NCBI GenBank assembly: GCA_040218735.1
Contig: JAVJQW010000055.1
Span: 96,001-160,000 of the forward strand
Length of the DNA stretch: 64,000 nucleotides
Source: Deltaproteobacteria bacterium
GTDB lineage: Bacteria > Myxococcota > Kuafuiibacteriia > Kuafuiibacteriales > Kuafuiibacteriaceae
Reading direction: 5' to 3'
The position numbers and the translations under genes were made by a program. Of the stretch, positions 20,793 to 46,241 are shown piece after piece. The notes beneath the pieces were generated by a model. That model did not search any database, was not told the DNA's origin, and saw only the letters and a list, made by a program, of their open reading frames with translations. How positions within the stretch are numbered: the stretch's first letter is position 1; each line of letters starts with the position of its first letter.

Positions 20793-20875
20793 GACGGCTG
20801 CTTAACACGGGCTCGGGTCGGGGGCGCGCCGCGCCGAGTGATCTCTCGGCGGTTCTGTGTCAGGAAGGGCGGACG

Positions 20876-28517: not shown

Positions 28518-28853
28518 ATGCGCCGGTTTGCGTTGGTGCTGTTGCTCGCGGCGTGTGACCCGGGGGTGGACCTCGCGGCGCCGGGGACGGTCTGCGCCGA
28601 TGCGCAGGACCACTTCCTGGAGTGCGGTGTTGCGCTCGGCATCCTGTCGGGCTCGACGTGCTCCGGCCCGGGGCGACTCGTCGCGGAGTGTGTGGTGGAG
28701 CGCGCCGGGTCGTGTGAGCGGCTCGCGTCGATCACCTACGACCAGTGCATCGCGGAGGCGGCGGAGCGCGCCGCGGAAGCCGCGGACGGACCGGGCTTCG
28801 ACCCGGTCAACCTGTTCAACCGGGCGCGGGACCAAGAGGAGGATGATTCATGA
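28518..28853 (+). CDS. Small 6-Cys lipoprotein
   Basis: MRRFALVLLLAAC lipobox; sits 1 bp after the lipase and overlaps the MMPL start (ATGA). Confidence 0.7.
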   Translation: MRRFALVLLLAACDPGVDLAAPGTVCADAQDHFLECGVALGILSGSTCSGPGRLVAECVVERAGSCERLASITYDQCIAEAAERAAEAADGPGFDPVNLFNRARDQEEDDS

Positions 28854-31225: not shown

Positions 31226-31226
31226 G

Positions 31227-33217: not shown

Positions 33218-33220
33218 GCG

Positions 33221-33556
33221 CTAGGTCTTCAGCGCTTCGAATCCATCCTTCGGGAATCCCACGAAGAGCTTCTTCCCCGAGCGAATCAGCGGCGCGCGCA
33301 GGTTGCCCGTGGGGCCCAGCATCGCGGCGACGATCGTGTCGCGGTCGTCCTTCTTCGGGTCGAAGCGAGTCAGCTTCGTGCCCTTGGCGACGTGGACTTC
33401 GGTCGCGCCGTCGAGCAGCTGCTCCGCGTAGTCCCGTCCGAGTTTCTTGCTCGCCGACACCGTCTCTTTCGGCTCGGCGGACGCTTGCGCGAGAAACTCC
33501 CGCGCTCGTTTGCAAGACGTTCAACCGTTGCGGTGGTAGTACCAGTCGATCTTCAT
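33221..33556 (-). CDS. ArsC/Spx-family selenoprotein (UxxC), 111 aa
   Basis: ATG at 33556 reads MKIDWYYHRNG-TGA-TSCKRAREFL... in frame with the track ORF 33221..33460 (...NLRAPLIRSGKKLFVGF). TGA at 33523-33521 occupies the first Cys position of CxxC. Confidence 0.85.
33481..33520 (-). promoter_or_regulatory. Putative bacterial SECIS element
   Basis: Immediately 3' of UGA: lower stem ACG(U)CUU/AAGCGU, upper stem GCGCGGG/CUCGCGC, loop AGUUU starting 23 nt after UGA. Confidence 0.65.
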
Positions 33557-34980
33557 CGCGCCGCCTCGTTAGCGGGTCGTGCTGAGATACGCAACCGATC
33601 ACGTCGAAGCGCCGATCGCACGACCTTTCCGCGCTCGGAGCGAGGCAACACCTCCACGAGCTCGACGGAGGCCGGGACCATGTACACCGGCAGCGCGCGC
33701 CGGCACGCGGCCTGGATGTCCGCAGCTGAGAGCCGGGCGTTCGGCTCGAGGACCACGTGCGCCACGACGCGTTCCCCCGTCCGCCGATCCGGCACGCCGA
33801 CCACCGCGCAGGCATGAACGCCGGGTAGGGCGTCGATCGCCGCTTCGATCTCCCGTGGGCCGACGCGGTGGCCTGCGACCGAGATCATGTCGTCGCGGCG
33901 CCCGACGATGAAGAGGTAGCCGTCTTCGTCCAGGTAACCCATGTCGCGGGTTCGGAGCCACCCGTCCCGAACGACTTCGGCCGTCGCGGCCGGGTCACCC
34001 AGGTAACCGGACATGACGTTGTCGCCGCGCGCGAAGATCTCACCGAGCACATGGGCCGGCGCCGGCGCGCCGTCGTCGACGCGCACCGAAATCTCGACGC
34101 CCGGGATCGCGATACCCACCGAGCCGGGTTTTCGGTCGAGGTCTTCGGGCGGGAGATAACTCAGGCGCGCCGAAGCCTCGGTCTGCCCGTACATGCAGAA
34201 GAGCCGGGCGTTCGAGAACGCGCGGCGCACGCGGGTTGCGAGAGGCGTGGGCATCGGTGCACCGGCCTGGGTCACGTAGCGAAGGCTCGTGAGGTCGTAG
34301 GTTGCGATGCCGGGGGTGTCCAAAATCCGCAGAAACGTCGAAGGCACCGCCGAAAGACCGGTGCAGCGGTAGGTCTGAATCGTGTCGAGGAGCGGTCCGA
34401 CGAACGCGGCGGATCCGGCCTCGACGATCGTACCGCCCGCGTGGAGTTGAGTATTCAGGACCGAGAACCCATACGCGTGGTGGTTCGGGAGGCACGCCGC
34501 GACTCGATCCTGATCGGACAGCCCGAGGTATTCCACGATGGCGCGGGTGTTGGCTTCGATGTTGGCGTGCGTGAGCATGACGCCCTTGGGCTCCGCCGTG
34601 GTCCCCGAGGTGTGAAAGATCATCGCGACGTCCGCGCCGACGTCACGACGCTGCGGTGTCCTTGGCTCGATCTGGTCCCGCGACCGCACGACGAGGCACG
34701 CCCCGGCGCGCTCGGCGATCTCCGCGTAGCGTTTATCGCCTTCCCCCAGCGGAATCGAGACGGCGCCCGCCATCGAGGCGCCGTAGGTCGCGACGAGGAA
34801 GTCCAGACCCCGCGTCATGACGACGACACGATCGCCCGGACCGACGCCGAGCCGTGCGGCGAAGTCGCGGACCAGAGTGAGCAGCCGGCCGTAGGTCGTG
34901 ACCTCGTCCGCGTCGACATGTGCGATGCGCTCGGGATCTTCGAGCGCGTGCCGAATGAGTGCGTCGTGAATCGCGGTCAT
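33553..34980 (-). CDS. Class I adenylate-forming enzyme (acyl-CoA/ACP ligase-like)
   Basis: FHTSGTTAEPKG, MYGQTE, RTRDMG, GRRDD, LPRSERGK. ATG at 34980. Confidence 0.9.
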   Translation of the reverse strand: MTAIHDALIRHALEDPERIAHVDADEVTTYGRLLTLVRDFAARLGVGPGDRVVVMTRGLDFLVATYGASMAGAVSIPLGEGDKRYAEIAERAGACLVVRSRDQIEPRTPQRRDVGADVAMIFHTSGTTAEPKGVMLTHANIEANTRAIVEYLGLSDQDRVAACLPNHHAYGFSVLNTQLHAGGTIVEAGSAAFVGPLLDTIQTYRCTGLSAVPSTFLRILDTPGIATYDLTSLRYVTQAGAPMPTPLATRVRRAFSNARLFCMYGQTEASARLSYLPPEDLDRKPGSVGIAIPGVEISVRVDDGAPAPAHVLGEIFARGDNVMSGYLGDPAATAEVVRDGWLRTRDMGYLDEDGYLFIVGRRDDMISVAGHRVGPREIEAAIDALPGVHACAVVGVPDRRTGERVVAHVVLEPNARLSAADIQAACRRALPVYMVPASVELVEVLPRSERGKVVRSALRRDRLRISARPANEAAR

Positions 34981-35801
34981 GGGTAGCTCCCTCCGGCCGG
35001 CACCACGGTCCCGATGTCGAGCGTGGCGCCGGCGGCGATTTTCGCGCGCGCGCCGACGATGACTCCGCGGTCGATGGTCACGCCGTGGCCGATGCGCGCG
35101 GCGTCGCCGATCTGGACGTCGCTGTGGAGCCAACACCCCGGACCGAGGCGAGCCGCGCCGCCGACTGTGCAGCCCGGACCAATGAGGCACTCCGCACCCA
35201 CGATGCTGCCGTCCCCCACGTAGACGCCGGGGCCGACCTTCACACTCTCCAGGAGCTGCGCGCCCCGGCCGATTCGCACCGGCGCGAGGGTCAGCGTCCG
35301 GCCCATGGCCGCGTGACACGCGATGACGACGCCGGCGGAGATCTGCGCGTCGCGTTCGACGGCGATCAGGGAGGGGTCGAGCATCACCGGATCCGAGGAG
35401 CTCTGAAAGCCGAACGCGACGCGCGCGCCGAGCGCTCGGAGCATGAGCGTGCGCAGCGTGGTCGTCGAGAACATCAACGGTCGCCACACCGGGAGATACA
35501 TGACGCGCATGAGCGCGAAGTGCAGGAGCCACACGATGACGCCACGGTCCTTCGGGACCGCGTAGATTCCTGCTTCGAGCTTCGGGAGGAGGTTTCGGAC
35601 GAGCCACGCCATGGCGCAGAGGCCGACGAGGTAGAGGAGCACACCGATGGGGAGGAGCAGCGCTTGGACGATCGGCGCCAGCGCCAGTCGTTGGTGTACG
35701 GCGACGAGCGCAGCGGCAGGGGGCCCCGCGATCGTCAAGAACATCGCGACGAAAAGTGCGTCGAACGCCACGTACATCGAGGTGGGGACATCGGCTTTCA
35801 T
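34977..35801 (-). CDS. Membrane-anchored left-handed beta-helix (hexapeptide) acyltransferase
   Basis: N-terminal TM helices, LRALGARV, then [VI]G..... hexapeptide repeats. Confidence 0.78.
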   Translation of the reverse strand: MKADVPTSMYVAFDALFVAMFLTIAGPPAAALVAVHQRLALAPIVQALLLPIGVLLYLVGLCAMAWLVRNLLPKLEAGIYAVPKDRGVIVWLLHFALMRVMYLPVWRPLMFSTTTLRTLMLRALGARVAFGFQSSSDPVMLDPSLIAVERDAQISAGVVIACHAAMGRTLTLAPVRIGRGAQLLESVKVGPGVYVGDGSIVGAECLIGPGCTVGGAARLGPGCWLHSDVQIGDAARIGHGVTIDRGVIVGARAKIAAGATLDIGTVVPAGGSYP

Positions 35802-37297
35802 GACAGAGGCTCCTGCACCAGCAGACGGGGTTTGGTCTGGGCGTGTCCGCGTTTGAAGGCGAACGACGGGTGATCGGGCGCGACGCGGCGCGCGGTGAGC
35901 GGGTCGAGCGTCCCGTTTGCGACGTACCGTCGGTAGATCGGGTTGAGCTCTGCGAGTGCGAGCTCCACCGCCGAGACCTCTCCGGGCGCGATGGGTTCGT
36001 CCACGCACAACTCGAGCCCGCGGCCCGACGCCGCAGGAGCGACGAGGCACGATCGATCGCGGGTGAGTTGCTTCAGCACCTCCACCAGCTCTGCTTCGCT
36101 GACGGAGGCGGGGCCGAGGCTGATCTGGTTGGCGCTCTTGTGCGAGAAATGAACGATGGGAGATCGGTGAAAATAGCCCGTGCACGTCACGACGTCCTGA
36201 AGCCGATAGCGCACCAAACCCATCGCCGTGGTGAGTACGAGCTCGTAGGATTGCCCGGGTTCCAGCGCCCACATGGGGACGAGGTTCCGCGCGTGAGGCT
36301 CCATCCCCAGCGGGAGGAGCTCGAACACGTGGGCTCCGGGGTGGAGGGGGCCCCCGGGTGCGCCGTCGGCGCGCGGGACGTTCATCCACCCCTCGGTCGC
36401 GGAGTAGGTCGCGTCGACGAACGGGACGCCGCCGACCACGCGCCGGAGCGCGGGGAGCTGCAGACCGCACGTGGATGACTTCCAGCAGATGACCGCCTGG
36501 AGGGTGGGCCAGAGCGCTCCGAGGTCATCACCGCCGTCGAGGACCGAACGGATGAGATCGCGTCGAGCGTCGTCGAGTCGGGCCGGTGGGAGCGGCGCCG
36601 GCGGCTGCGCGCGGCCGGCGAGGATCGGCTCGTACAGGGCGCGGTTCGCGCCGAGGTTTTCGAAGAAACGAGAGATCGCCGCCGGGGTGATGCCGACCAT
36701 CGCGCTCAGGTCGGTGGCGACGGCGTAGAGCGGCCCCCATCGCGAGAACGATTCTTCGCTCGCGAGGACCTCGATCGGGAACCCATACAACCTACGCAGG
36801 AACGCGGGGATCGTGCGGTAGTTGAAGTGACTGATGAGTCCGACTTCGACGCCGGAGGGCGAGAACTCAACGGGTTTCGTGGCCGCGAAGTACAGCACCG
36901 GACGTGACAAGAGCTTCGGAAATCTGGAGGTGAGTCCTCGGAGGAAGGCCGGCGTCGTAGTCTGGAACTGGCGACGGTAGGTCGGTGTGATGGGGAAGAG
37001 TTTTCGGGGGCCTGTTGTTCCGGTGCTCTCGGACCAGTAGAGGATGGGTTCCGCCGACAGCTCGGAGCGCTCCTTCGCGAAGCTCCGCGTCAGCGCGTCG
37101 CGGTAGTCGTCGTACGTGGTGAGCGCGAAGTCGGACAGCGAGGCCGCCCCGCCGCGCCAGAAGGGCGAACGCCGAAGGACGCGCCACGTCTCGGCCCACA
37201 CCCGCGCCTGTGCGCGTTCGGGGTTCTGACAGTCGCGCACGAAGGCGCGGTGCGGAAGGAGCGTGCTCGCGCGGAGCAGCGGGCGTGCGATGTTCAT
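35798..37297 (-). CDS. GH3-family acyl-acid amido synthetase-like protein
   Basis: ESTGTTGPRKLFPIT, YSATEG, GLVRYRLQDVV match GH3 motifs 1-3; GAGGAGG RBS upstream of ATG at 37297. Confidence 0.85.
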   Translation of the reverse strand: MNIARPLLRASTLLPHRAFVRDCQNPERAQARVWAETWRVLRRSPFWRGGAASLSDFALTTYDDYRDALTRSFAKERSELSAEPILYWSESTGTTGPRKLFPITPTYRRQFQTTTPAFLRGLTSRFPKLLSRPVLYFAATKPVEFSPSGVEVGLISHFNYRTIPAFLRRLYGFPIEVLASEESFSRWGPLYAVATDLSAMVGITPAAISRFFENLGANRALYEPILAGRAQPPAPLPPARLDDARRDLIRSVLDGGDDLGALWPTLQAVICWKSSTCGLQLPALRRVVGGVPFVDATYSATEGWMNVPRADGAPGGPLHPGAHVFELLPLGMEPHARNLVPMWALEPGQSYELVLTTAMGLVRYRLQDVVTCTGYFHRSPIVHFSHKSANQISLGPASVSEAELVEVLKQLTRDRSCLVAPAASGRGLELCVDEPIAPGEVSAVELALAELNPIYRRYVANGTLDPLTARRVAPDHPSFAFKRGHAQTKPRLLVQEPLS

Positions 37298-37310
37298 GGT
37301 GTCGTCCTCC

Positions 37311-38666
37311 TCACAGCGGCCCGTTGCCGGGCGCGGCATCGGTGATGTGCGGTGCGCCGAGCACCGCGAACGCGCGCGCGAGCTCGGGTCGGGTAGCGTC
37401 GGGGTGGATCGTCTTGTCCAAGACCCCGGCTGCGGCTGCGCCGCCCGCGGCTTCGTACAGCGGGTGGACTTCGCCGCGGACCGCGCGGGCAGCCGCACCG
37501 CCCATCGCTTCGAACCGCGTCGAAGGGTAGGCGAGCCGAAGCTGTCCGGGCAGCGCGAGGACGCTCCCGCCGCCGTACACCTTGCGGATCACGAGGGACA
37601 CGAGCGGGGTTCGGCAGCGGGCGTACGCGTAGATGAGCTTCGCGCCGTGGAGGAGGAGCCCGCCCTGTTCCTGGTCCACGCCGGGGAGGAAGCCGGGGAC
37701 GTCGACGAGCGTCAGGATCGGCAATCCGAACGCGCTGCAGAGCTGAACGAGGCGCGCGCCCTTACGCGAGGCTTCGCAGTCGAGCACGCCAGCGCGGTGC
37801 AGCGGTTGACTCGCGAGGATGCCGATCGAACGTCCGCCGAGGCGGGCGAGCCCGACGACGAGGTTCTTCGCGTACGCACCCTGGAGCTCCAGGAACGAGC
37901 CGCGGTCGACGATCTCCTCCACGATGGGGTGCACGTCGTACGGCTTTCGCTCCGAAGTGGGGAGAGCGGCTGCGATGCCTCGCGTCACGCGGTCGAGCGG
38001 GTCGTCGTTTGCGACCGCGTTGGCGGGGAGGTACGCGAGCAGGGCGCGCGCGGCGTCGATGGAGCTGGCTTCGTCGTCGGCGGTGACGTGCACGAGGCCG
38101 GTCGTGGTCGCGTGCATCGGGACGCCGCCGAGCGCATCGATCGCGACTTCACGCCCCGTCACGATCTGCGTGACGCGCGGCCCAGTGACGAAGCAGTAGC
38201 CGCCGTCCTCGTGACCGACGACCACGTCCTGCAGCGCCGAACCGTACGCGGCGCCGCCGACGCACAGGCCGAGCACCACGCCGACCTGCGGCACGAGCCC
38301 CGACAGGCGCGCGGTCGCGGCCAGCACCTGCGCGAACGCCTCCATCGCGGCCGGGCCTTCTTCGATACGGACGCCGTCCGAGTCGAACAGCGTGACGACG
38401 GGGGTACGTCGCCGCTCGGCGAGCTCGAGGAGCCGAAGGATCTTCTGGCCGCCGCTCACGCCGAGCGCTCCGCGCTGCACCATCGGGTCGTGCGCGTAGG
38501 CGGCGACGGTGCGGCCGTCGATGCGGCCGAACCCGGCGATGACGCCGTCTTCACCGTCCCGTCGCGCGCCCACTTCGACGAAGCTCTCCGCGTCGAAGAG
38601 GCGCTCGATGCGTTCGCGGACGAGGAGCCGTCCGAGGCGCTTGTGGCGGCGCTCTGCGGCGCTCAT
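37311..38666 (-). CDS. Acyl-CoA carboxylase carboxyltransferase subunit
   Basis: RERIERLFD, DGVIAGFGRIDGR, GGAAY, FVTGP, DVPGFLPG, RKVYGG. Confidence 0.9.
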   Translation of the reverse strand: MSAAERRHKRLGRLLVRERIERLFDAESFVEVGARRDGEDGVIAGFGRIDGRTVAAYAHDPMVQRGALGVSGGQKILRLLELAERRRTPVVTLFDSDGVRIEEGPAAMEAFAQVLAATARLSGLVPQVGVVLGLCVGGAAYGSALQDVVVGHEDGGYCFVTGPRVTQIVTGREVAIDALGGVPMHATTTGLVHVTADDEASSIDAARALLAYLPANAVANDDPLDRVTRGIAAALPTSERKPYDVHPIVEEIVDRGSFLELQGAYAKNLVVGLARLGGRSIGILASQPLHRAGVLDCEASRKGARLVQLCSAFGLPILTLVDVPGFLPGVDQEQGGLLLHGAKLIYAYARCRTPLVSLVIRKVYGGGSVLALPGQLRLAYPSTRFEAMGGAAARAVRGEVHPLYEAAGGAAAAGVLDKTIHPDATRPELARAFAVLGAPHITDAAPGNGPL

Positions 38667-38914
38667 GCCGTCGCTCCCACGCGCTCTTCGAGGAACAGCA
38701 CGAGCTTCTCGACGGTGTCGACGCCGTGGTACGCGCTGGGTTCGGCTTTGTACCCGAAGTCCTTCTGTAGCAGCAGGATGAAGTCGACAACGTCGAGGCT
38801 GTCGAGCCCCAACGTCGCGGTGAAGTTTGCGTCGTCTTCGATGACTTCTCGGTCGACGGAGAAGTCATCGGTGAGGATTCGAATCACGTGGGATCGGATG
38901 TCGTTTCGAGTCAT
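38663..38914 (-). CDS. Acyl carrier protein
   Basis: LGLDSLDVVD phosphopantetheine site; acidic, 83 aa. Confidence 0.9.
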   Translation of the reverse strand: MTRNDIRSHVIRILTDDFSVDREVIEDDANFTATLGLDSLDVVDFILLLQKDFGYKAEPSAYHGVDTVEKLVLFLEERVGATA

Positions 38915-39927
38915 TTCGATTCTCCTGGGATGCGAATGAGTGCAGCGCCCGCGCAGAAGCCGGCGCCGCCGCCGACCAGCAACACGTTCGCGCCCGGCCG
39001 CAGGCGAGACGAGGTCAGCGCCTCGTCGGTCGCCACGGCCAAAGAAGCGGCGGACATGTTCCCGGTGCGGTGGACGTTGACGAACACCTTGGCGCTGGGG
39101 ATTCGCAGGTAGCGCGCGAGGCGATCGAGGATCAGGCGGTTGGGTTGGTGCGGGACGACGAGGTCGATGTCGTCGAAGGTCAGGCGCATCGCGTCGAGGA
39201 GGGTGTTGGCCGCCTGACTCATGCCCTCCAGTGCGGTGAGGAACACCCGCGGACCATCGACCATCTTCAGGAAGTGTTCGCGGCGCGCGGCGGTGTCGGC
39301 CGTGGTCGGTCGACGACTGCCGCCCGCGGGGACGTGGATTGCCTCGGCGCCTTCGCCGTCGGTCATCAGGTGCACGGCGAGGAGCCCTTCACCGACGGGG
39401 CCGCGCTCGAGGAGCAGGCCTCCGGCGCCGTCGCCGAAGAGCGCGAAGGTCCCTCGGTCCGTGGGGTCGATGAGTCGCGAGCGAATGTCCGCCGCGAGGA
39501 CGAGGACGCGCTCGTCACCGGTGAGGATGGAGCGCGCAGCGAGGTCGAGGCCGAAGAGGAACCCACCGCACGCCGCGGCGACGTCGAAGGCCGGCGCGGG
39601 CGCGAGCCCGAGACCGCGTTGGACGAAACACGCGCAGGCGGGGATCGGGTGGTCGGGCGAGGAGGTGCCGACGACGAGGCGATCGACATTTGCGACACCG
39701 GCGCGGTCCAGCACCGTGCGGCCGGCCTCGATGGCGAGGTCGCTCGTGGCCTGGTCGGGCGCGGCCCACCGCCGCTCGCGGATGCCCGTGAGCTTTTCGA
39801 TCTGCGCCGCCGTGAGCGGCGCGTCGGCTCGGGCCGCGAGCTCGTCGGTCGTGACGACGCGACCCGGGAGGTAGGAGCCGGTCGAGCGGATACGCAGGCC
39901 GGCGTGCTCGGCGATCAGGAGGCTCAT
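38911..39927 (-). CDS. Beta-ketoacyl-ACP synthase III-like condensing enzyme (C-H-N intact)
   Basis: TGIRERR, AACGGF, LFGDGAG, VPHQPN, GNMSAAS. Confidence 0.9.
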   Translation of the reverse strand: MSLLIAEHAGLRIRSTGSYLPGRVVTTDELAARADAPLTAAQIEKLTGIRERRWAAPDQATSDLAIEAGRTVLDRAGVANVDRLVVGTSSPDHPIPACACFVQRGLGLAPAPAFDVAAACGGFLFGLDLAARSILTGDERVLVLAADIRSRLIDPTDRGTFALFGDGAGGLLLERGPVGEGLLAVHLMTDGEGAEAIHVPAGGSRRPTTADTAARREHFLKMVDGPRVFLTALEGMSQAANTLLDAMRLTFDDIDLVVPHQPNRLILDRLARYLRIPSAKVFVNVHRTGNMSAASLAVATDEALTSSRLRPGANVLLVGGGAGFCAGAALIRIPGESK

Positions 39928-40163
39928 CGACTCGTCTCCTGCGTCCGTTGGACGAGTCGAACGAGCGCACCGATCGATTCGAACGCCGCGGGTGTCACGT
40001 CGCGCGCGCTCAATCGGACGCCGAAGTCGTCCTCGATCGCGCCGTGCACGAGGACGATGCCGAGGGAGTCGAGCCCGATGGGTTGGTCGTCGCCGAGCGC
40101 GGTGACGTCGAGCGTCGCGTGACGCGAGACGATTCGCGCGAGCCGGTCGCGGATGTCAGACAT
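39924..40163 (-). CDS. Second acyl carrier protein
   Basis: MSDIRDRL (ATG at 40163); IGLDSLGIV...IEDDFGV...FESIGAL. Confidence 0.82.
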   Translation of the reverse strand: MSDIRDRLARIVSRHATLDVTALGDDQPIGLDSLGIVLVHGAIEDDFGVRLSARDVTPAAFESIGALVRLVQRTQETSR

Positions 40164-41205
40164 GGATGCCTCCCACGGAGTAGATCGCGGCGCCCCACGT
40201 GAGGCCGCCGCCGACGGCGCCGAGGAGCAGGTGCTCGTCGGCCCTGAACAACGGACGCCGATGGTGCAGCGCGAGGAAGAGGCCCGCCGCGCCGCAGTTG
40301 CCGTGGTCGGCGACGCCGTCGAATGTGCAGTCGTGGGCCACACCGAGCGCCGCAGACATCCGTTCGATCGCGGGGCGGCTGCTCTGCTGCGGGATGAAAC
40401 AGGCGATGTCTTCCACGCCGATCGTCGCCGATTCCATCGCGGTCGATGCGGCGTCGGCGCAGCGCAAGGTTCCTTGCTCGAGGAACGCCTCGGGTGCGGC
40501 GCGCAGCCAGTAAGCGCCGGCGTCGATGCGGTCGTGGGTGCAGGGGAAGGGGGCGCCCCCGCCCATCGCGTCGATCGAGCCGTCCGCGTCGAACGTCGAT
40601 GCCCTCAGGCCGCCACGGTCGTGAGGGACGATGACCACGGCACCTGCGCCGTCGCCGAGCGCCAGCGCCGCGAGCGGTGCGTCCGGGGGGATCATCAGGG
40701 AGAAGGCGTCGGCGCCGACGACCGCGACGGGCTGGCGCGTCGACGTCGCGAACAGGCAGCCCTGTACGAAGGCGAGGAGGCCCCCCGTGCAGCCGGCCCG
40801 AACGTCGAAGGCCGCGCACCGCGCGCCGACGCGGCCTGCGATCGCGGGCGCGTTGGCGCCCGTGATGCGCGCGGGCGTGCTGGTCGACGTGATGATCGCA
40901 CCCAGCGCGCCCGACGACAGGGCGGCGTCGTTCAGCGCCTGCTCGAGCGCGCGGGCGCCGAGGTCGACAGTGCTCGGGGCGTCGTCACGGAATGGCTCGC
41001 CGACGGCGTGCACCCAGTGCCGGTTCGCGACGCCGAGGCGCTCGAAGATCAACGCGTCCATCGCGTCGGCGTCGCGTGCGCCGCGCGGGCCGGTCGCGCC
41101 AAGGCGCTCGACGACCTCGCGGTTGGAGATCGGCGGCCCCGGGAGGTACGCACCGGTCCCGGCGATGCGGCAGCGCGCCGGCGTGTCGATCGTCAGCGCG
41201 GTCAT
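40156..41205 (-). CDS. KAS III-like condensing enzyme with His->Gln substitution
   Basis: AGCTGG (Cys kept), LGDGAGA, FIPQQSS in place of PHQ, HGNCGAA. ATG at 41205. Confidence 0.82.
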   Translation of the reverse strand: MTALTIDTPARCRIAGTGAYLPGPPISNREVVERLGATGPRGARDADAMDALIFERLGVANRHWVHAVGEPFRDDAPSTVDLGARALEQALNDAALSSGALGAIITSTSTPARITGANAPAIAGRVGARCAAFDVRAGCTGGLLAFVQGCLFATSTRQPVAVVGADAFSLMIPPDAPLAALALGDGAGAVVIVPHDRGGLRASTFDADGSIDAMGGGAPFPCTHDRIDAGAYWLRAAPEAFLEQGTLRCADAASTAMESATIGVEDIACFIPQQSSRPAIERMSAALGVAHDCTFDGVADHGNCGAAGLFLALHHRRPLFRADEHLLLGAVGGGLTWGAAIYSVGGIHV

Positions 41206-42851
41206 GACGAGGTCTCCGCGACGAGCGCGCGACACTGCGCGCGCTGCTTCTTGCCGCTCGACGTCTTCGGGAGCGTGTGCGGCGCGGCGAGCACCACGCG
41301 TTGCACCGCGACGCCGACGTGCCGGAGCACGGTCTGCGTGATGCCGCGTTCGAGCGCCCGACGTTCGTTCGGATCCGAGAGTCGCGTCTCGACGGCGATC
41401 ATCAGCGCGTCGGCGCCGCGTCGGTCGTCGAAGGCGCTCAGGGCATAGGCGTTGCCCTTGCGGACGCCGGGGAGTGACTCCACGGTTGCTTCGATGTCCT
41501 CGGCGTAGAAGTTACGGCCGCGAACGATGAGTACGTGTTTGGAGCGGCCGATGACGAAGAGCTCACCTCGCTCGTCGAAGTAGCCCAGATCGCCGGTTCG
41601 CAACTCACCGTCGCGAATGACTTCGTGCGTGGCGGATGGGTCACCGAGGTAACCGGCCATCACCGAGGGGCTGCGGACCGTGATCTCACCGACGCTCCGC
41701 GGCTCGAGCTCGACGCCGTTCGGGTCGCGCACGGCGACGAGGTTTCCGGTCAGCGGCGCGCCGACGGAGACGACCTCCACCGCGTCCGCGGATTCGGTCG
41801 CCTGGACGGCACGCGGGTGGCTCGCGTCCTGGAGCGCCTCACGCAGAATCCGCTGAACGCGGAGGCCGTCGCCCGGGCGTCCGAGCGAGACGCCGACGCA
41901 GCACTCCGCGAGGCCGTAGGCGCTGCAGAAGCTGGCAGGGTCGAGACCGGCGCGAGCAAAACGATCGTAGAACGCGCGGATGACTTCGGGCTGAATGGGT
42001 TCACCGCCCGAGACGACGAGCCGGAGCGCTCCAAGGTCGAGGCCGCTGAGGACGTCGTCGTCGACGCGCCGGGTGCTGAGTCCGAACGCAAAGCTCGGCG
42101 CGGTGGTGACGGTCGCACGGTGACGCGAGACCGCACGCCACCACGCCGCGGGCTCTTGAATGAAACGCGCCGGCGACATGAGTACGTGCTCGGCCGGTCC
42201 GAAGAGCGCCTGGAACAGCGCGCCGATCAGACCGAAGTCGTGATAGAGCGGCAGCCACGTGACGGCGGTGTCCGTGGGCCCGACCTGCGTGCGCTCGGCG
42301 AGAGCGCGGCAGTTGGCCATGAGGTTTCTCTGCAGCAGGACCGCAGGCTTCGGGAGCGACGTGCTGCCGGAGGTGCACTGGATCAGGCCGATGTCGTCCG
42401 GGCTCGGGTCCTGGTCGACGCCCGGCTCCGCGGTGAGCGTCGCGACGTCACAAATTCCGCGCTCCCCGAAGTTGGCCTCGATCGCCGCGCCGATCGTCGC
42501 GTCGGTCACGACGAAGCGGGCGCCCGTGGCGCGGGTGATGTGGTCGAGGAGCCGCCGGTAGTCGTCGAGTCGCGCCATCGCAACCGGGGGATACGCAGGC
42601 GCGACGGCGCCGCCCGCGAGCATCACGCCGAAGAGCATCTCGACGAGCTCGAAGCTCGTATCGAGCACCACGATCACCGCGTCGCCGCGCTCCAGGCCTC
42701 GACGCCGGAGCGCCTCGGCACGGCGGCGCGCGCCCTCGTAGATCTCGCCGTACGTTCGGCGCTCCTCGTGGCCGTCGGTGCCGGCGATCACGATGCCCTG
42801 GTCACTTCGTGCGGCGCGTCGCAGCGCGGCGCAGAGGTTGTTCGGCTCCAT
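41202..42851 (-). CDS. Fatty acyl-AMP ligase (FAAL)
   Basis: QCTSGSTSLPK, WLPLYHDFGL, YGLAE followed by a FAAL-type insertion, RTGDLG, GRNFYAEDIE, PKTSSGK. Confidence 0.9.
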   Translation of the reverse strand: MEPNNLCAALRRAARSDQGIVIAGTDGHEERRTYGEIYEGARRRAEALRRRGLERGDAVIVVLDTSFELVEMLFGVMLAGGAVAPAYPPVAMARLDDYRRLLDHITRATGARFVVTDATIGAAIEANFGERGICDVATLTAEPGVDQDPSPDDIGLIQCTSGSTSLPKPAVLLQRNLMANCRALAERTQVGPTDTAVTWLPLYHDFGLIGALFQALFGPAEHVLMSPARFIQEPAAWWRAVSRHRATVTTAPSFAFGLSTRRVDDDVLSGLDLGALRLVVSGGEPIQPEVIRAFYDRFARAGLDPASFCSAYGLAECCVGVSLGRPGDGLRVQRILREALQDASHPRAVQATESADAVEVVSVGAPLTGNLVAVRDPNGVELEPRSVGEITVRSPSVMAGYLGDPSATHEVIRDGELRTGDLGYFDERGELFVIGRSKHVLIVRGRNFYAEDIEATVESLPGVRKGNAYALSAFDDRRGADALMIAVETRLSDPNERRALERGITQTVLRHVGVAVQRVVLAAPHTLPKTSSGKKQRAQCRALVAETSS

Positions 42852-42866
42852 GCTGCCGAGGACGAG

Positions 42867-42882
42867 TGCAACGGAGGTGCCA
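42867..42882 (-). promoter_or_regulatory. Sigma54 (-24/-12) promoter of the FAAL operon
   Basis: Minus strand reads TGGCAC-CTCCG-TTGCA, an exact consensus match, 15 nt upstream of the FAAL ATG. Confidence 0.8.
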
Positions 42883-42952
42883 CCGGTAGCTCGTGGCGAG
42901 CGGCGCCGTCGTGTGCAGAACGCTTTACACCTTGTGTACGCGCCTGCGCGGC

Positions 42953-43723
42953 TTACAGGAGGTTCGTGAGGTGCAGCCCCCCGTCGATCGGGAGCACCGC
43001 GCCCGTGATCTGACCGGCGACGGGGGAGCACAGGAAGGTGACGAGCCGCGCTACGTCTTCGTTCTTCGACAGGGCGCGCGTCGCGGCCGCGCGTTTCATC
43101 TTCCGGCGCGCGGCGGGGTCGTCGTTGAGCTCCGCGAGGCGTTCGTTGTCGACGAAGCCCGGCGCGACGATGTTCGCGGTGACGCCGTAACGTCCGAAAT
43201 CGAGCGCGATGTTGCGCACGAGCCCTTCGAGCGCCGCCTTGACCGTCGAGTTGATCGGCGTCTTCGGCGCGCCCATGCGCCCGAGGTGCGAACCGACCAC
43301 CACCACCCGTCCGTCGCGCGCCGCCATCATCTCCTCCAACGCCGGCCCCAGGAGCGCGAAGGGCGCGCGGAGGTCGGTGTTCAGCGAGACGTCGAGGTCC
43401 TGCCGGAACACGCTGTGCACCTTCGCGTAGCGGTGCATGTGGCCGTGGCTCAGCACGACGATCGTCGGTGCTTCGCCGAGCGCCTCCGTGGCGCGCGCAA
43501 CGACACCGGACGCTGCGTCCCAGTCGCTCAAGTCGGCAGGGATGACGTGGGCTTCGCCGCCGCGTTCACGGATCTCGGCGGCGGTCCGGTCGAGGTTTGC
43601 CTCGCTCCGCGCGACGAGCGCGACGCGCACCCCTTCGTCGGCGAGCGCGAGCGCGATCGCCCGGCCGATGCCGCGGCTCGCGCCGGTGATGACGGCGGTT
43701 CGTCGTTCGAGATCGAGGAACAT
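42953..43723 (-). CDS. SDR/FabG-like oxidoreductase (atypical NxxxK)
   Basis: TGASRGIG, VAPGFV, ITGAVLPIDGG; catalytic motif reads NSTVK instead of YxxxK. Confidence 0.85.
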   Translation of the reverse strand: MFLDLERRTAVITGASRGIGRAIALALADEGVRVALVARSEANLDRTAAEIRERGGEAHVIPADLSDWDAASGVVARATEALGEAPTIVVLSHGHMHRYAKVHSVFRQDLDVSLNTDLRAPFALLGPALEEMMAARDGRVVVVGSHLGRMGAPKTPINSTVKAALEGLVRNIALDFGRYGVTANIVAPGFVDNERLAELNDDPAARRKMKRAAATRALSKNEDVARLVTFLCSPVAGQITGAVLPIDGGLHLTNLL

Positions 43724-43751
43724 GCGCCGGTGCGAATGCACGAAGCACGCC

Positions 43752-43767
43752 GGGCACGGTTCCTGCT
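43752..43767 (+). promoter_or_regulatory. Putative sigma54 promoter of the second MMPL gene
   Basis: GGGCACG-GTTC-CTGCT: GG-N10-GC spacing, 15 nt before ATG at 43783. Confidence 0.55.
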
Positions 43768-43782
43768 CTTGGTGGGCGGACG

Positions 43783-46134
43783 ATGGAGCGCGCTGCGCAT
43801 GCGATCGCCACGACGATCGTCGATCACCCGAAGCTGTGTCTGAGCGCCGCGCTCGTCGTCACGGTGGTGGCGGGGGTGGCGGGGGTGGCCGCGCCCGGGC
43901 TTCGGTTCGACTCGTCCTATCGCTCGATGCTCCCGCCGGACGAGCCGCGGATCCTCGAGGCGGACGCCGTGCGCGCCCGCACGGGGGGGCAGCGGCAGCT
44001 GGTGATCGCCGTGTCCGGGCCCGACGCCGAGCGGCGTGCGGCGTTCGGGCGGGCGCTCGCGGACGACATCGAGGCCCTACCTCAGATTCGCTGGGTCGAC
44101 GCCGAGCTCCCGGTCGCGTGGTTCGAGGCGCGTGCGCTGTGGCTGCTCGAGGAAGACGAGCTCGAGGCGATCGTGGAGGCGGTGGGCGACGCTCTGGATC
44201 GCGAGGCCGCGGCCCGTCACCCCTTGAGCATCGCGCTCGACGCGGACTCGACGGCGGAGGACGCGTGGGCTCGCGTTCGACAACGCATCGACGCGAACCG
44301 CAGCGAGCTCCATCGTATGCACCTCGAGAGCCGCGACGGGCGCTACACCTTCGTCGTCGTCACCCCGACCGTGACGGTCATGGACTTCGAGGGGTCGAAC
44401 GCTCTCTTCAGTGGAATCGAACGTGCGGTGCGTTCCCTCCGCGAAGTGTACCCCGACGTCGAGGTTCGGTACGCGGGGAAGTTCCAGCTCGCGCGCGACC
44501 AACACGCCGTCCTCACGGCGGACATGCGGCGCGCGTCCCTGCTCGCGTTCGCGTTGTGCCTCATCGTCATCGCGCTCGTCACGCGCCGCCTCGCGGCTCC
44601 GTTGATCGTCGTGGGCGGTGTGGTGCTCGGACTCGTCTGGACCCTCGCCGCCGCGCGGCTCCTCGTCGGTTCTCTCAACCTCATCAGCGCGTTCCTCGTG
44701 CCGGTGCTGATCGGCCTCGGCGCGGACTTCGGCATTCACCTCGTGGTCCGCTACGGGCAGGAGCGGGCGGAGCGCCCGGCGCGCGCCGCACGGATCGCGA
44801 CCGTCGCCGGTCTGCTCCCGCCTTCGTTCGTCAGCGCACTCACCACGGCCGGCACGTTCGCGGTGCTCACGCTCTCCGACTTTCGCGGCTTCTCGGAGCT
44901 GGGGCTCGTCGCGGCCGTCGGCGTGTTGCTCACCTTCGTCGTGAGCTTCCTCGCGGTGCCTTCCATGCTCGGGCGCTTCGGCGGCGCTACGACGCCGGTG
45001 TCCGGAGGCGCACGTGTCTTCCCGCGTCGCGCGGCCGTGCTCGTCGTGATCGCCCTATCCGTCGGCGCGCTCTTCGGCGCCGTCCGCGCGACCGACATCC
45101 GCTTCGACAACGACTACCGCCGCCTGAGGACCGACTCCGACGAGGTCGAGTTCTTCCGCTACGTCGACGAGAACCTCGGCCTTCGATTCGATCCGACGGT
45201 GGTGGTGGTCGACGATCTGGACGCGGCGCGCGCCGTCCACCGGGCCATCGCCGCCGAGGGGGTGGGGCGCGTGTTCTCGATCGTCGATCTCCTCCCGCGA
45301 ACGTCACCGCGGCGCCGCGAGCTCTTGGACGAGCTGCAGGCGTTGCTGTCCCGGCGTGCCTACGACGGGCTCCGAGGCGACGACGCCGAGCTGCTCGCAC
45401 GCGCGCGCGCGCAGGTCGCGCAGGCGCCGTGGTCGGTCGACGAGATCCCGGCCACGGTGCGTCGCCGCCTCATGACGTTGGACGGGGAGGGGTGCACGGT
45501 CCTGTTTTGGCCCGACACACCGATCACCTCCGACGCCGCCGCGTGGGCCTGGGCGGAGCGCCTCGATCGAATCGGCGCGCAGCTCGACGCGGAGGGCGTC
45601 ACGCACCTGATGGCGACGGAGACGTTGACGCCGTCGTGGGTGCACCAGCGCATCGTCGCCGACGCGCCGAAGACGATCACGCTCGCGGCGCTCGTCGTTC
45701 TGATGATCACCGCGGCCTCGATGCGGACGGTGCGGAGGACGCTGCTCGTCTGCGTCCCGCTGGTCGTCGCCGTGACGGGGACGCTCGGGGTGATGGTCGC
45801 GACCGGCCTCGACCTCGACATGTTCAACCTCATCGTCCTGCCCACCGTGTTGGGCATCGGCATCGACAACCTCGTGCACCTCGTCCACCGCTACGAGCGC
45901 TGCGGACCGGGCTCGATGCCGTTCGTGTGGAAGAGGACGGGGCAGTCGGTGCTCCTCACGTCCGTCACCACCGCGATCGGCTTCGGCGCGATGCTCGTGG
46001 CGCACCACGCCGGGCTCAGGAGCCTCGGCACGTTGGCGTTGATCGCGATCGGCGCCACGCTGCTCGCGGCGGCCGTGTATCTCCCGGCGCTGTTGGTGAT
46101 GATCGATCGCGCAGCGCCGGATCGAGTACGCTGA
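43783..46134 (+). CDS. MMPL/RND family transporter (HpnN-like)
   Basis: IGLGADFGIHL, SDFRGFSELG, GIGIDNLVHL, LTSVTTAIGF. Confidence 0.9.
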   Translation: MERAAHAIATTIVDHPKLCLSAALVVTVVAGVAGVAAPGLRFDSSYRSMLPPDEPRILEADAVRARTGGQRQLVIAVSGPDAERRAAFGRALADDIEALPQIRWVDAELPVAWFEARALWLLEEDELEAIVEAVGDALDREAAARHPLSIALDADSTAEDAWARVRQRIDANRSELHRMHLESRDGRYTFVVVTPTVTVMDFEGSNALFSGIERAVRSLREVYPDVEVRYAGKFQLARDQHAVLTADMRRASLLAFALCLIVIALVTRRLAAPLIVVGGVVLGLVWTLAAARLLVGSLNLISAFLVPVLIGLGADFGIHLVVRYGQERAERPARAARIATVAGLLPPSFVSALTTAGTFAVLTLSDFRGFSELGLVAAVGVLLTFVVSFLAVPSMLGRFGGATTPVSGGARVFPRRAAVLVVIALSVGALFGAVRATDIRFDNDYRRLRTDSDEVEFFRYVDENLGLRFDPTVVVVDDLDAARAVHRAIAAEGVGRVFSIVDLLPRTSPRRRELLDELQALLSRRAYDGLRGDDAELLARARAQVAQAPWSVDEIPATVRRRLMTLDGEGCTVLFWPDTPITSDAAAWAWAERLDRIGAQLDAEGVTHLMATETLTPSWVHQRIVADAPKTITLAALVVLMITAASMRTVRRTLLVCVPLVVAVTGTLGVMVATGLDLDMFNLIVLPTVLGIGIDNLVHLVHRYERCGPGSMPFVWKRTGQSVLLTSVTTAIGFGAMLVAHHAGLRSLGTLALIAIGATLLAAAVYLPALLVMIDRAAPDRVR

Positions 46135-46241
46135 TTCGGACGTCGCCAGCACACCGCCCAAGCGCTTACGCTGGATGCGAAGCTCGAAGCGGCGCGCGAG
46201 GCCCTCGCCCACGGGGTGCTCGACGTGGGATACGACGGCGC

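Follow-up and report, generated by a model that had tools for sequence, protein, structure and literature searches.

An eleven-gene lipid biosynthetic operon in a Deltaproteobacteria bacterium with the core gene content of the Legionella lol cluster

The window, a stretch of 64,000 nt from a Deltaproteobacteria bacterium, contains a dedicated lipid or polyketide-like operon with translational coupling, eleven genes in all: an SDR gene and ten further genes on the minus strand, with export genes alongside. The best explanation, to which we give a probability of about 0.55, is a divergent single-operon version of a lol-type cluster, i.e. a discrete-enzyme FabH-based assembly line which makes an exported amphiphilic lipid. 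Its product is probably other than legionellol itself. In the initial annotation this gene set was taken to match no characterised cluster, but the Legionella pneumophila lol cluster (lpg2225-2234) carries the same set; it has been tied to the surfactant legionellol and to sliding motility by ketosynthase knockout (PMC5640695). Both are lost upon inactivation of lpg2228 (lol4), and legionellol is unchanged when the GH3 gene is inactivated (PMC5640695). The authors of that work themselves describe legionellol biosynthesis as unclear (PMC5640695).

The ten minus-strand genes, the SDR and a divergent MMPL gene had been called correctly and at the right coordinates: Pfam recovers the domains assigned to all 12 submitted open reading frames, weakly in the case of the selenoprotein. 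A recount also gives the same number of ATGA junctions. These 4-nt overlaps are found at seven of the nine junctions among the ten genes (FAAL/KAS-B, ACP-B/KAS-A, KAS-A/ACP-A, ACP-A/CT, GH3/LbH, LbH/ANL and ANL/ArsC), the last of them counted only with readthrough of an in-frame TGA at codon 12. The KAS-B and ACP-B genes overlap by 8 nt; between the carboxyltransferase (CT) and GH3 genes there is a gap of 13 nt, and a GGAGG-type motif precedes the GH3 ATG at 37297. The first gene of the operon is probably the FabG-like SDR (42953..43723, minus strand; Pfam adh_short_C2, 9e-46), 101 nt upstream of the FAAL start. It is a ketoreductase candidate, with a FabG-type model as its top NCBIfam match (159.8 bits, under the cut-off of 222).

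The lol cluster and the window correspond one-for-one in a GH3 protein, two FabH-like KAS III enzymes, a FAAL, a second ANL ligase, a PccB-like CT, a FabG-like SDR and two ACPs, at a low identity of 24–36%. The second ACP, absent from the published gene list, was found in the L. pneumophila cluster. The GH3 protein of the window and lol1 are reciprocal best matches (35% identity, 6.9e-96). In the genome of L. longbeachae the top matches of CT and KAS-B are located where lol3 and lol4 would be expected, and in the window's own genome the top match of lol8 is KAS-A and that of lol6 is the second ANL ligase, the latter by a narrow margin (110 vs 109 bits). By sequence, KAS-B appears to be the counterpart of lol4/lpg2228, KAS-A that of lol8/lpg2232 and the second ligase that of lol6. 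Orthology is weakened by the ranks of other matches: in its own genome the window gene is the runner-up as a match of lol3, of lol4 and of lol7, and for lol5 it ranks third, and the lol5-place match of the window's FAAL ranks third in L. longbeachae (204 bits vs 331 and 205.5). The likeness to the lol cluster is also limited by the lack, in the window, of its acyl-CoA dehydrogenase (lol2) and MFS pump.

Co-occurrence of these genes is conserved: five or more of seven partner families are present in 48 of 65 loci of other genomes that are anchored on GH3 and come from four phyla. These 48 loci are distributed as 30/33 in Legionellales, 11/12 in Bdellovibrionota, 4/4 in Acidobacteriota and 3/6 in the Myxococcota-type group. 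Beside the distant GH3 proteins of Sericytochromatia/Cyanobacteriota there are none (0/9 loci). The gene association is not due to chance. In the four cluster-bearing groups the SDR is present in 45 of 55 loci. The closest named relative, locus L004, is collinear with the window from SDR to GH3 (46–71% identity) and adds a fatty-acid hydroxylase.

Transport genes stand beside the cluster in every version that we examined: MlaEFD and MFS genes in L004, an MFS pump in Legionella, and MMPL, LolA-like and barrel genes in the window, which take the place of the lol MFS. The divergent MMPL/HpnN-like RND transporter (43783..46134, plus strand) matches Pfam MMPL with 3.1e-26 and reaches 258 bits with the NCBIfam HpnN-like model, whose cut-off is 752. 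A second transporter of the MMPL/HAE3 type (28850..31225, plus strand; Pfam MMPL 4.3e-32; NCBIfam HAE3 143 bits, under cut-off) opens a three-gene export unit convergent on the operon; its homologues adjoin the same GH3 subfamily in loci L016 and L050. It is followed by a LolA-like periplasmic lipid carrier (31182..32018, plus strand; Pfam LolA_like 4.1e-57, DUF1329 2.1e-12), a type of gene present in six of the 65 GH3-anchored loci. The third gene (32030..33217, plus strand) codes for a probable outer-membrane barrel protein, whose N-terminus resembles a signal peptide and which has an aromatic residue at the C-terminus. It has no Pfam or NCBIfam match; the nearest named protein-atlas clusters, DUF1302 at a score of 0.97, give no more than a lead. 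A homologue adjoins GH3 and MMPL in L050. The stop of the barrel gene lies 3 nt from that of the selenoprotein gene.

The acid-activating enzymes come next. The FAAL-like ANL gene (41202..42851, minus strand) has Pfam AMP-binding (1.1e-62) and an AMP-dom_DIP2-like C-terminal domain. Its top PDB matches are FAALs (3pbk 3.6e-76, 3kxw 2.3e-62, FadD32 3.7e-42), with CoA ligases at 1e-32 or weaker, and it reaches 386 bits with the NCBIfam fatty acyl-AMP ligase model, under the cut-off of 600. The FAAL of the lol cluster, lol5, is the crystallised LpFAAL (3kxw/3lnv, 1301 bits), for which a table in a review lists C12:0 as substrate. The second ANL ligase (33553..34980, minus strand; Pfam AMP-binding and AMP-binding_C) is of the acyl-CoA or acyl-ACP ligase type; its PDB relatives are feruloyl-CoA synthetase, 4CL, FadD13 and malonyl-CoA synthetase (1e-61 to 1e-52). 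The carboxyltransferase (37311..38666, minus strand; Pfam Carboxyl_trans 1.7e-108) is an acyl-CoA carboxylase beta-type protein, PccB/AccD-like, of 451 aa; its PDB relatives are longer (473–570 aa). They include an ACC beta chain (1.5e-97), PccB (about 1e-92), AccD5 (about 1e-84) and an AccD4-type chain (3.4e-70). No gene for a biotin carboxylase or carrier was found among the 42 window ORFs scanned.

These enzymes bear on the suggestion that the operon follows the logic of mycolate assembly, which we consider unlikely, if the best placed of the alternatives. The CT would carboxylate a long acyl-CoA at C2, a KAS would join it to the FAAL-loaded chain to form a 2-alkyl-3-ketoacyl product, and the SDR would turn this into a branched 3-hydroxy acid for export by MMPL. 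This part of the initial annotation may serve as an account of how the genes work. The window has a linked set of FAAL, CT, condensing enzyme, reductase and MMPL, and FadD32 is among the PDB relatives of the FAAL. The cluster does not belong to the mycolate type: it lacks a Pks13-type PKS and has a CT nearer to the short-chain PccB/AccD5/AccD6 (1e-92 to 1e-82) than to AccD4-type or long-chain acyl-CoA carboxylases (1.6e-36 for the latter). Also the MMPLs are HpnN- or HAE3-like, below every cut-off, and MMPL genes occur in only one of the 55 loci of the cluster-bearing groups.

The two condensing enzymes bear on the type of condensation. KAS-A (38911..39927, minus strand) is a FabH-type KAS III with a Cys-His-Asn triad; its 292.8 bits in NCBIfam NF006829 (beta-ketoacyl-ACP synthase 3) exceed the cut-off (249). 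In the PDB it matches FabH with 1.5e-55 and OleA with about 1e-15. KAS-B (40156..41205, minus strand; Pfam ACP_syn_III and ACP_syn_III_C) is KAS III-like, with FabH as its top PDB match (6.9e-31, vs 2e-4 for OleA). Its triad is Cys-Gln-Asn, with the Gln codon at 40387–40389. The norm in its family is Cys-His-Asn (45 of 47 sequences), and Gln is common to the four closest of 12 subfamily members; the change is fixed in the lineage and particular to the window's variant. With Gln in place of the triad His, KAS-B may not condense in the manner of FabH. In a quick tree search, with SH-aLRT support only, KAS-B groups with the lol4 clade (99) and KAS-A with the lol8 clade (96), both separate from four FabH paralogues encoded in the same genome; the KAS-B groups are both on long branches, so that their union could be due to long-branch attraction. 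Two ACPs accompany these enzymes, ACP-A (38663..38914, minus strand; Pfam PP-binding 7.1e-10), with a D-S-L motif, and ACP-B (39924..40163, minus strand; PP-binding 2e-05), with a Ser-containing D-S-L motif. ACP-B is closest in likeness to the ACP found between ligase and SDR in other loci.

It had been proposed that the KAS pair, like OleA/LstAB, joins two acyl chains head-to-head without decarboxylation and that an OleC/LstC-like ANL takes part; the product would be either an acid (2-alkyl-3-keto or 3-hydroxy) or a beta-lactone. The operon does combine a pair of KAS III-like genes with genes for an ANL ligase and a reductase, and KAS-B lacks the triad His in the window's lineage; from the biochemistry of FabH, this loss could disable decarboxylation. 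However both KAS are far nearer to FabH than to OleA, which favours a decarboxylative condensation, and Cys-His-Asn is usual in both families. The CT, conserved in 46 of the 55 loci, points to a carboxylated extender, and the ANL ligase is most closely related to CoA ligases. We regard the proposal as improbable.

The GH3 gene (35798..37297, minus strand) codes for a 499-aa adenylating amido synthetase that belongs to the lol1 subfamily, with Pfam GH3 and GH3_M matches of about 62 bits each (cut-off 23.6). It matches the plant GH3.8 with 5.8e-15; the three nucleotide-binding motifs align and are invariant in 33 subfamily members, so that amidation by GH3 is plausible. The subfamily is sharply bounded, with 38 proteins at E values up to 1.7e-88 and the next at 2.9e-13. 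In 33 of the 65 loci an LbH protein gene lies no further than 2 kb from GH3. The LbH protein of the window (34977..35801, minus strand; Pfam Hexapep 9.6e-16) is a membrane protein with N-terminal helices and a left-handed beta-helix acyltransferase domain. Residues His163 and Asp142 do not vary among 30 sequences. Residues 18–211 match the Pls/PosA terminal-domain model NCBIfam TIGR02353 (7.6e-15; 54 bits, far under the cut-off of 423), as do all nine orthologues. The LbH protein is similar to one repeat of the C-terminal amide-forming domain of Pls/PosA. That domain is modelled in three repeats, each a helix pair and a left-handed beta-helix, and without it amides are not polymerised from a carrier-bound thioester (PMC10522769). 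A homotrimer model of the LbH protein scored 0.84, vs 0.00 for the best of three controls; of 30 proteins with structures solved as one-chain pairs 20 attain the mark, and of 23 solved single-chain proteins one does. Between runs at least 92% of contacts agree, with partner pLDDT of at least 88. LbH proteins are typically trimers, and the pass may reflect likeness to solved structures. The LbH protein is a candidate for chain transfer or for the missing chain-release step. The role of GH3 and LbH in legionellol is unproven, since the Legionella GH3 knockout had no effect on it.

Family membership suggests each of the six steps of the following route for the lol-type assembly line. A medium or long fatty acid would be adenylated by FAAL and loaded on one ACP, while the second ANL would activate a second acid. 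A carboxylated extender would come from the PccB-like CT together with the cell's own biotin carboxylase and carrier. On the two ACPs, KAS-A and KAS-B would catalyse decarboxylative Claisen condensations, and the FabG-like SDR would reduce the beta-keto group. The membrane LbH, as a stand-alone homotrimeric counterpart of the Pls/PosA domain, would then move the chain from the ACP to an amine or hydroxyl acceptor, and the adjacent GH3 could make a further ATP-dependent amide. Finally the lipid would reach the cell surface through the MMPL transporters, the LolA-like and the barrel proteins.

The core gene set is that of the lol cluster, so the product might be legionellol or a trivially different congener. 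We find this quite improbable: the acyl-CoA dehydrogenase (lol2) of the lol cluster is absent from the window, as is its MFS pump, the low identity and different transporters have been given above, a KAS residue is changed, and the collinear L004 has an extra hydroxylase. The argument compares gene content with a published structure, and the link between these is itself unclear. That the genes are spare housekeeping copies for fatty-acid synthesis and activation, with no dedicated product, is very improbable: KAS-A, SDR and the ACPs do resemble FabH, FabG and ACP, but a separate FabH and FabG pair is found on contig C70, the operon is translationally coupled and it is tied across four phyla to a rare GH3 subfamily, with no comparable score in the 60 relatives searched (best 276 bits, vs 728 for the window's own).

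The last gene of the operon (33221..33556, minus strand) has 111 codons and matches NCBIfam NF041106, 'ArsC family (seleno)protein', with 117 bits (cut-off 85); the Pfam ArsC match is weak and under cut-off (E 0.0066). We found no counterpart in the 65 related GH3-anchored loci, and this appended ArsC-family selenoprotein is a feature particular to the window's variant. Its codon 12 is the in-frame TGA at 33521–33523, read as Sec, which gives a U-x-x-C motif. In alignments this U falls on the first Cys of CxxC in Spx and on a Cys of full-length homologues, and the same genome encodes tRNA-Sec and SelA.

The minus-strand operon at 33221-43723 is a version of the cluster which in Legionella pneumophila comprises lol1-lol10 and is linked to the surfactant legionellol. 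It is not without precedent: the initial annotation knew of no characterised cluster with this gene set, which corresponds one for one to the lol cluster except for the dehydrogenase and the pump. At the level of single genes that annotation was right, and Pfam recovers every gene it listed. In order of transcription the operon codes for a FabG-like SDR (42953-43723), a FAAL-like ligase (41202-42851), KAS-B (40156-41205), ACP-B (39924-40163), KAS-A (38911-39927), ACP-A (38663-38914), a carboxyltransferase (CT, 37311-38666), a GH3 protein (35798-37297), a membrane protein with a left-handed beta-helix (LbH, 34977-35801), an ANL ligase (33553-34980) and, as its last gene, an ArsC-like ORF (33221-33556). 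From the FAAL gene to the last gene there are ten genes with nine junctions. Seven of these are 4-nt ATGA overlaps, the same count as originally given; the seventh, between the ANL ligase and the ArsC-like gene, holds only with readthrough of an in-frame TGA at codon 12. The KAS-B/ACP-B junction is an 8-nt overlap, while CT and GH3 are separated by a 13-nt gap with a GGAGG-type motif ahead of the GH3 start. A scan of 32800-46500 found no sigma-70 promoter-like site and 10 terminator-like sites, against 4.8 ± 2.4 in shuffled sequences; none of the latter is placed between genes so as to divide the operon, and the scan is uninformative on its limits.

Genes related to transport are found on both sides. 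A gene for an MMPL protein (43783-46134, also identified with Pfam) is divergent from the operon, and a plus-strand unit of three genes converges on it: an MMPL/HAE3-type transporter (MMPL1, 28850-31225), a LolA_like/DUF1329-type protein (31182-32018) and a 395-residue barrel candidate (32030-33217) whose N-terminus resembles a signal peptide and whose C-terminus is aromatic. The nearest named protein-atlas clusters of the last protein are DUF1302, which is only a lead. DUF1302 and DUF1329 are both linked with RND transporters. The genome to which the window belongs has 11.6 Mb in 70 contigs; the GC content of the window is 69%. Elsewhere in this genome there is a second set of barrel, MMPL and LolA-like genes (contig C4, 107590-114054), and an MMPL gene which adjoins a paralogue of the membrane LbH (contig C39, 98920-101999).

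The products of the Legionella cluster (lpg2225-2234) are given in Table 1 of Johnston et al. 2016 (PMC5640695): GH3 (lol1, 509 aa), an isovaleryl-CoA-dehydrogenase-like protein (lol2, 563 aa), a propionyl-CoA carboxylase (lol3, 479 aa), KAS III (lol4, 353 aa), an acyl-CoA synthetase (lol5, 581 aa), an acyl-CoA ligase (lol6, 464 aa), a 3-oxoacyl reductase (lol7, 250 aa), another KAS III (lol8, 336 aa), an ACP (lol9, 75 aa) and an MFS pump (lol10). The ORFs of the locus L026, from L. pneumophila subsp. fraseri, match these sizes. This locus also has a second PP-binding ORF, an ACP, on the minus strand between ligase and SDR (2222-2521), which is absent from that Table 1; most related loci have an ACP there as well. 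The window and the Legionella locus share GH3 proteins of one subfamily, a pair of FabH-like KAS III enzymes, a FAAL-type enzyme, a further ANL ligase, a PccB-like CT, a FabG-like SDR and two ACPs. In both an export gene adjoins the cluster, and a membrane LbH gene is nearby in 30 of the 33 Legionellales loci.

The differences are also clear. The proteins have identities of only 24-36%. The host of the window has a very large genome of high GC content, whose nearest named relatives are labelled Deltaproteobacteria or Myxococcota. A single operon holds the genes, whereas lol is organised in two divergent operons. MMPL, LolA-like and barrel export genes take the place of the MFS pump. Pfam detects no acyl-CoA dehydrogenase (lol2) in the operon, neither between CT and GH3 nor elsewhere; the nearest matches of lol2 in the same genome are outside the operon, and the one on the contig of the window (C33) lies beyond the window. 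We find this dehydrogenase in 32 of the 33 Legionellales loci but in none of 22 loci of Bdellovibrionota, Acidobacteriota and Myxococcota type, so that it is a feature of the Legionella lineage and not of the whole family. The compact form as a single operon in a non-pathogen, with envelope export genes and without the dehydrogenase, is new.

We compared the two sets of proteins in both directions. In the forward test the L026 proteins were searched against the genome of the window. The best match falls in the window for lol1, lol8, the LbH protein and, by a narrow 110 to 109 bits, lol6. For lol3, lol4 and lol7 the window gene ranks second, for lol5 third: the best match of lol3 is a CT on contig C58 (264 bits, against 239 for the window CT), that of lol4 is a FabH on contig C70. 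In the reverse test the window proteins were searched against the L. longbeachae genome alone. Here CT finds the lol3 place best (231.5 bits, the next one 153), as KAS-B does for lol4 (79.6 against 72.4 bits), while for FAAL the lol5 place comes third (204 bits, against 331 and 205.5). The GH3 proteins are mutual best matches, with 35% identity over 512 columns (E 6.9e-96). Simple reciprocal best hits do not hold for FAAL and SDR, and for CT and KAS-B the two directions disagree; we have therefore relied on a tree and on the conservation of the gene set.

The KAS tree, of 99 sequences, comes from a quick IQ-TREE run and has only SH-aLRT values as support. In it KAS-A lies inside the lol8 clade (support 96). 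KAS-B groups with its counterparts in three loci from other genomes (L004, L065 and L067) on the lol4 side of a split with support 99, although the KAS-B groups have long branches, which weaken this join. Both enzymes are apart from the four FabH paralogues of their own genome. With the caveats of long branches and of a quick tree, the two FabH-like KAS III are placed as orthologues of lol4 and lol8. We read the whole as one family of homologous clusters, in which orthology to lol is firm for GH3, KAS-A and LbH and probable for KAS-B and CT, while FAAL, ANL and SDR are candidate orthologues. The second ANL ligase, the FabG-like SDR and the ACPs are present in the operon, and L026 contains the same classes.

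The GH3 subfamily is sharply bounded: among 8000 candidates scored, 38 proteins have E ≤ 1.7e-88 and the next one has 2.9e-13. Its nearest named member, from a Deltaproteobacteria MAG, has 90% identity. With a profile built from 33 members of the subfamily we obtained 65 loci in contigs from one genome per species. In each of them, within the DNA fetched, we scored seven partner families (KAS-A type, KAS-B type, SDR, ANL, ACP, CT and LbH), using profiles built from the window's own proteins and their matches. At least five of the seven partners are found in 48 of the 65 loci; three of the partners (SDR, ANL and ACP) belong to widespread families, ORFs are only roughly called in high-GC loci, and the counts are floors because 13 of the loci are shorter than 15 kb. 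With the loci grouped by the taxa in their record titles, the proportion is 30/33 in Legionellales/Gammaproteobacteria, 11/12 in Bdellovibrionota, 4/4 in Acidobacteriota, 3/6 in Myxococcota/'delta' and 0/1 in an unknown taxon. Sericytochromatia/Cyanobacteriota have the most distant GH3 and serve as a negative control: none of their nine loci reaches five partners. The pathway of the initial annotation presupposed a conserved co-occurrence of these genes, which is indeed present; in the locus L004, from a 'delta proteobacterium' MAG, the genes from SDR to GH3 are collinear with those of the window, at identities of 46-71%. The breadth of the family is new: the lol-type gene set is conserved across four phyla, and many of its members are predatory or intracellular bacteria. 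In the literature searched, where bacterial GH3 is swamped by glycoside hydrolase family 3, we found no paper which extends the lol cluster beyond Legionella and no later paper which adds to legionellol biosynthesis.

Some of these loci have peculiarities of their own. In L004 a lipid transport set of MlaE/MlaF/MlaD type lies directly upstream of the cluster (89-3016), while a fatty-acid hydroxylase and an MFS gene are found downstream (11373-14425). These genes indicate that the type of transporter varies between versions of the cluster and that the theme of lipid export is constant. A locus of unknown taxon (L050) combines two GH3 genes with homologues of the barrel protein, MMPL1, the LolA-like protein and the ANL ligase, but has no KAS; this is a hint that GH3 and the export genes may function even where condensing enzymes are lacking.

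The GH3 profile gives 728 bits for the window protein; in 60 relatives searched with it we did not find a lol1-type GH3 with a comparable score (the best one has 276 bits), and a paralogue in the window's own genome has 185 bits. The mean GC3 of ten operon genes is 0.849, against 0.898 ± 0.025 in 23 other genes of the window. We considered a foreign origin, but this difference is too weak to claim transfer; the low GC3, together with the absence of such a GH3 from the relatives, suggests a patchy inheritance. The genome also has two more GH3 genes (contig C24, 143886-148303, and contig C18, 281320-282792), which fit the Pfam GH3 family better than the window GH3 does; the one on C24 adjoins an ANL ligase.

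The cluster was also compared with other systems. One of them is mycolate assembly, whose condensation genes are FadD32/AccD4/Pks13/CmrA/MmpL3. The resemblance drawn in the initial annotation stands for the logic, which is the same: a FAAL, a carboxyltransferase, a condensing enzyme, a ketoreductase and an MMPL exporter. It does not stand for membership. The mycolate condensase is a type I PKS, whereas the window has discrete FabH-like proteins and the operon has no PKS domain. The window CT is nearest to ACC/PccB beta subunits (1.5e-97), at a greater distance from an AccD4-type chain (3.4e-70) and from the long-chain carboxylase (1.6e-36): it is nearer to PccB, AccD5 and AccD6 than to AccD4. 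The MMPL proteins of the window are HpnN- or HAE3-like. No biotin carboxylase or biotin carrier domain was found in the 42 window ORFs scanned. The nearest structural relatives of the FAAL, its top PDB matches, are proven FAALs, while the NCBIfam FAAL models stay below their cut-offs. The second ligase is nearest to CoA ligases for aromatic, fatty and malonic acids; its match to an exosortase-associated ligase is below the cut-off (306 bits, cut-off 592). Both ACP-A and ACP-B carry the serine motif, and the cispentacin AmcB-like match of ACP-B is likewise below the cut-off (40 bits, cut-off 80). The lol5 counterpart in L026 (3829-5574) is essentially the crystallised LpFAAL (PDB 3kxw/3lnv), with 1301 bits over 581 residues, a link which is not made in the available passages of either Legionella paper. 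A table in a 2025 review (PMC11837247) gives C12:0 as the substrate of LpFAAL.

A second comparison is with OleA and LstAB. These are head-to-head thiolases with paired genes and an ANL partner; they share with KAS-A and KAS-B the thiolase fold of the KAS III superfamily, the pairing and the ligase. A greater closeness to OleA than to FabH is not borne out by structural matches: KAS-A has 1.5e-55 with FabH and about 1e-15 with OleA, KAS-B has 6.9e-31 and 2e-4. KAS-A also passes the NCBIfam FabH-type model (292.8 bits, cut-off 249). Finally, a cluster of aryl-polyene/flexirubin or dialkylresorcinol type can be discarded, as the DarB model gives only 45 and 23 bits with a cut-off of 550.

In the related loci 44 of 46 proteins of KAS-A type and 45 of 47 of KAS-B type have the Cys-His-Asn triad. 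The KAS-B of the window differs from the lol type: its triad is Cys-Gln-Asn, with the glutamine at residue 273 (codon CAG, 40387-40389). Twelve members of its subfamily were compared. The four nearest (100, 89, 82 and 65% identity) have this Gln and the other eight keep His. Being common to the four closest members, it is a fixed change of the lineage and not an assembly error. In FabH, according to the residue roles of the E. coli enzyme, the triad His helps decarboxylation. With this His-to-Gln change KAS-B may work differently in the lineage of the window. The fixed substitution is new.

We turn now to GH3 and LbH. The window GH3 matches Pfam PF03321/PF23571 with 61.6 and 61.7 bits (cut-off 23.6). 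It has the GH3 and GH3_M domains of the plant enzymes (GH3.8, JAR1 and others) and their three nucleotide-binding motifs, which align with rice GH3.8 and are invariant in 33 members of the subfamily. It differs from them in length, 499 aa against 575-620 aa; the match has an E value of only 5.8e-15, and the bacterial subfamily to which it belongs has no NCBIfam model. The LbH protein has N-terminal membrane helices followed by a C-terminal left-handed beta-helix. Its gene is found within 2 kb of GH3 in 33 of the 65 loci, often directly adjacent; in Table 1 of PMC5640695 it is not discussed.

The arrangement of helix pairs followed by a left-handed beta-helix is also that of the terminal domain of poly-lysine and poly-ornithine synthetases (Pls/PosA). 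The window LbH and 9/9 orthologues match the model of this domain, TIGR02353, on one of its three repeats (32-62 bits), and for 7/9 orthologues it is the top match. Pls/PosA has three fused repeats behind A and T domains, whereas the window LbH is a stand-alone single repeat with 54 bits against a cut-off of 423: on the evidence of the profile, the relation appears as resemblance and not as membership. In the published description the PosA domain consists of three units, in each of which a beta-helix comes after a pair of helices, and the units pack with three-fold symmetry (PMC10522769). It is required for amide polymerisation and acts on a carrier-protein thioester and an amine (PMC10522769). 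For the window LbH the corresponding arrangement has been modelled as a trimer. LbH trimers are well known, so that the score of the three-copy model, 0.84 against 0.00 for the best of three controls, shows likeness and not binding. Among 30 proteins whose solved structure is a pair of one chain, 20 reach the mark used; among 23 solved as single chains, 1 does. The trimer runs agree in at least 92% of contacts, which are found in the helices and in the beta-helix, with a partner pLDDT of at least 88. His163 and Asp142 are invariant in 30 members of the LbH family.

In Legionella, inactivation of lpg2228 leads to the loss of sliding motility and of a series of metabolites with legionellol A as the main scaffold; acylated legionellol forms restored motility (PMC5640695). 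Inactivation of the GH3 gene left legionellol unaltered, and the authors leave unexplained the chain release, the origin of the amine part and the role of GH3. Our analysis points to the overlooked membrane LbH: this GH3-adjacent, Pls-like protein is a new candidate for the missing chain-transfer or chain-release enzyme. A wider reading is that the lol1-type GH3 and the stand-alone trimeric Pls/PosA-like LbH would be an unrecognised module for chain release and amide formation, in a family of clusters which would make surface acyl-amide lipids. This reading is tentative: we give it about one chance in four.

The present analysis shows which genes are present, that they are coupled and conserved, and to which families they belong; others have shown that a lol4-type KAS is needed for the surfactant series of Legionella (PMC5640695) and that lol5 is a FAAL. 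The pathway could be as follows. FAAL and ANL would load two acids onto the two ACPs, and CT would supply a carboxylated extender with the help of housekeeping biotin components. The two FabH-like enzymes would then carry out decarboxylative condensation, SDR would reduce the beta-keto group, and LbH and GH3 would join the chain to an amine. Export of the product would fall to the MMPL, LolA-like and barrel proteins.

If the reading of GH3 and LbH as a release module is true, the two proteins link an assembly line of discrete, FabH-based enzymes straight to the membrane. The published structure of legionellol would then tell only part of the story, or reflect an indirect effect of the knockout. 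A class of acyl-amide lipids would span Legionellales, Bdellovibrionota, Acidobacteriota and Myxococcota-type genomes, with structures and roles yet unsolved. The lol cluster is among the very few natural-product loci of Legionella with a phenotype, surfactant and sliding motility, and a single-operon version in a non-pathogen, with its own envelope export genes, offers a safer and simpler system for solving its chemistry.

The last gene of the operon has no equivalent in lol. It fits the NCBIfam model NF041106 'ArsC family (seleno)protein' with 117 bits (cut-off 85) and has a U-x-x-C motif. In alignments its TGA falls on the leading Cys of the Spx CxxC motif and, in the full-length homologues examined, on a Cys; the genome has tRNA-Sec and SelA. 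The hairpin after the UGA is no more stable than shuffled sequences (SECIS fold, z 0.26), so that the call rests on the other evidence: the gene is predicted to encode an ArsC-family selenoprotein. The NF041106 family is common (182 matches, in most of which the start is called downstream of the UGA). What sets the window member apart is its translational coupling to a lipid operon: none of the 65 related loci has a counterpart, and the coupling is thus a local feature. The appended selenoprotein is new, and we give it no step in the pathway.

The window also holds other genes. Just upstream of MMPL1 there is a plus-strand ORF of 499 codons (27017-28516) without any Pfam match; its nearest atlas clusters, which are a lead only, are Myxococcota alpha/beta-hydrolase or lipase-like proteins (scores 0.94 to 0.90). 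On the minus strand, at 14760-20801, a gene of 2013 codons codes for a bacterial alpha-2-macroglobulin with domains MG2, A2M_BRD, A2M and bMG10. HtpG, a multihaem cytochrome and a clostripain-family peptidase are also encoded; with the alpha-2-macroglobulin they are an ordinary Gram-negative context, unrelated to the cluster.
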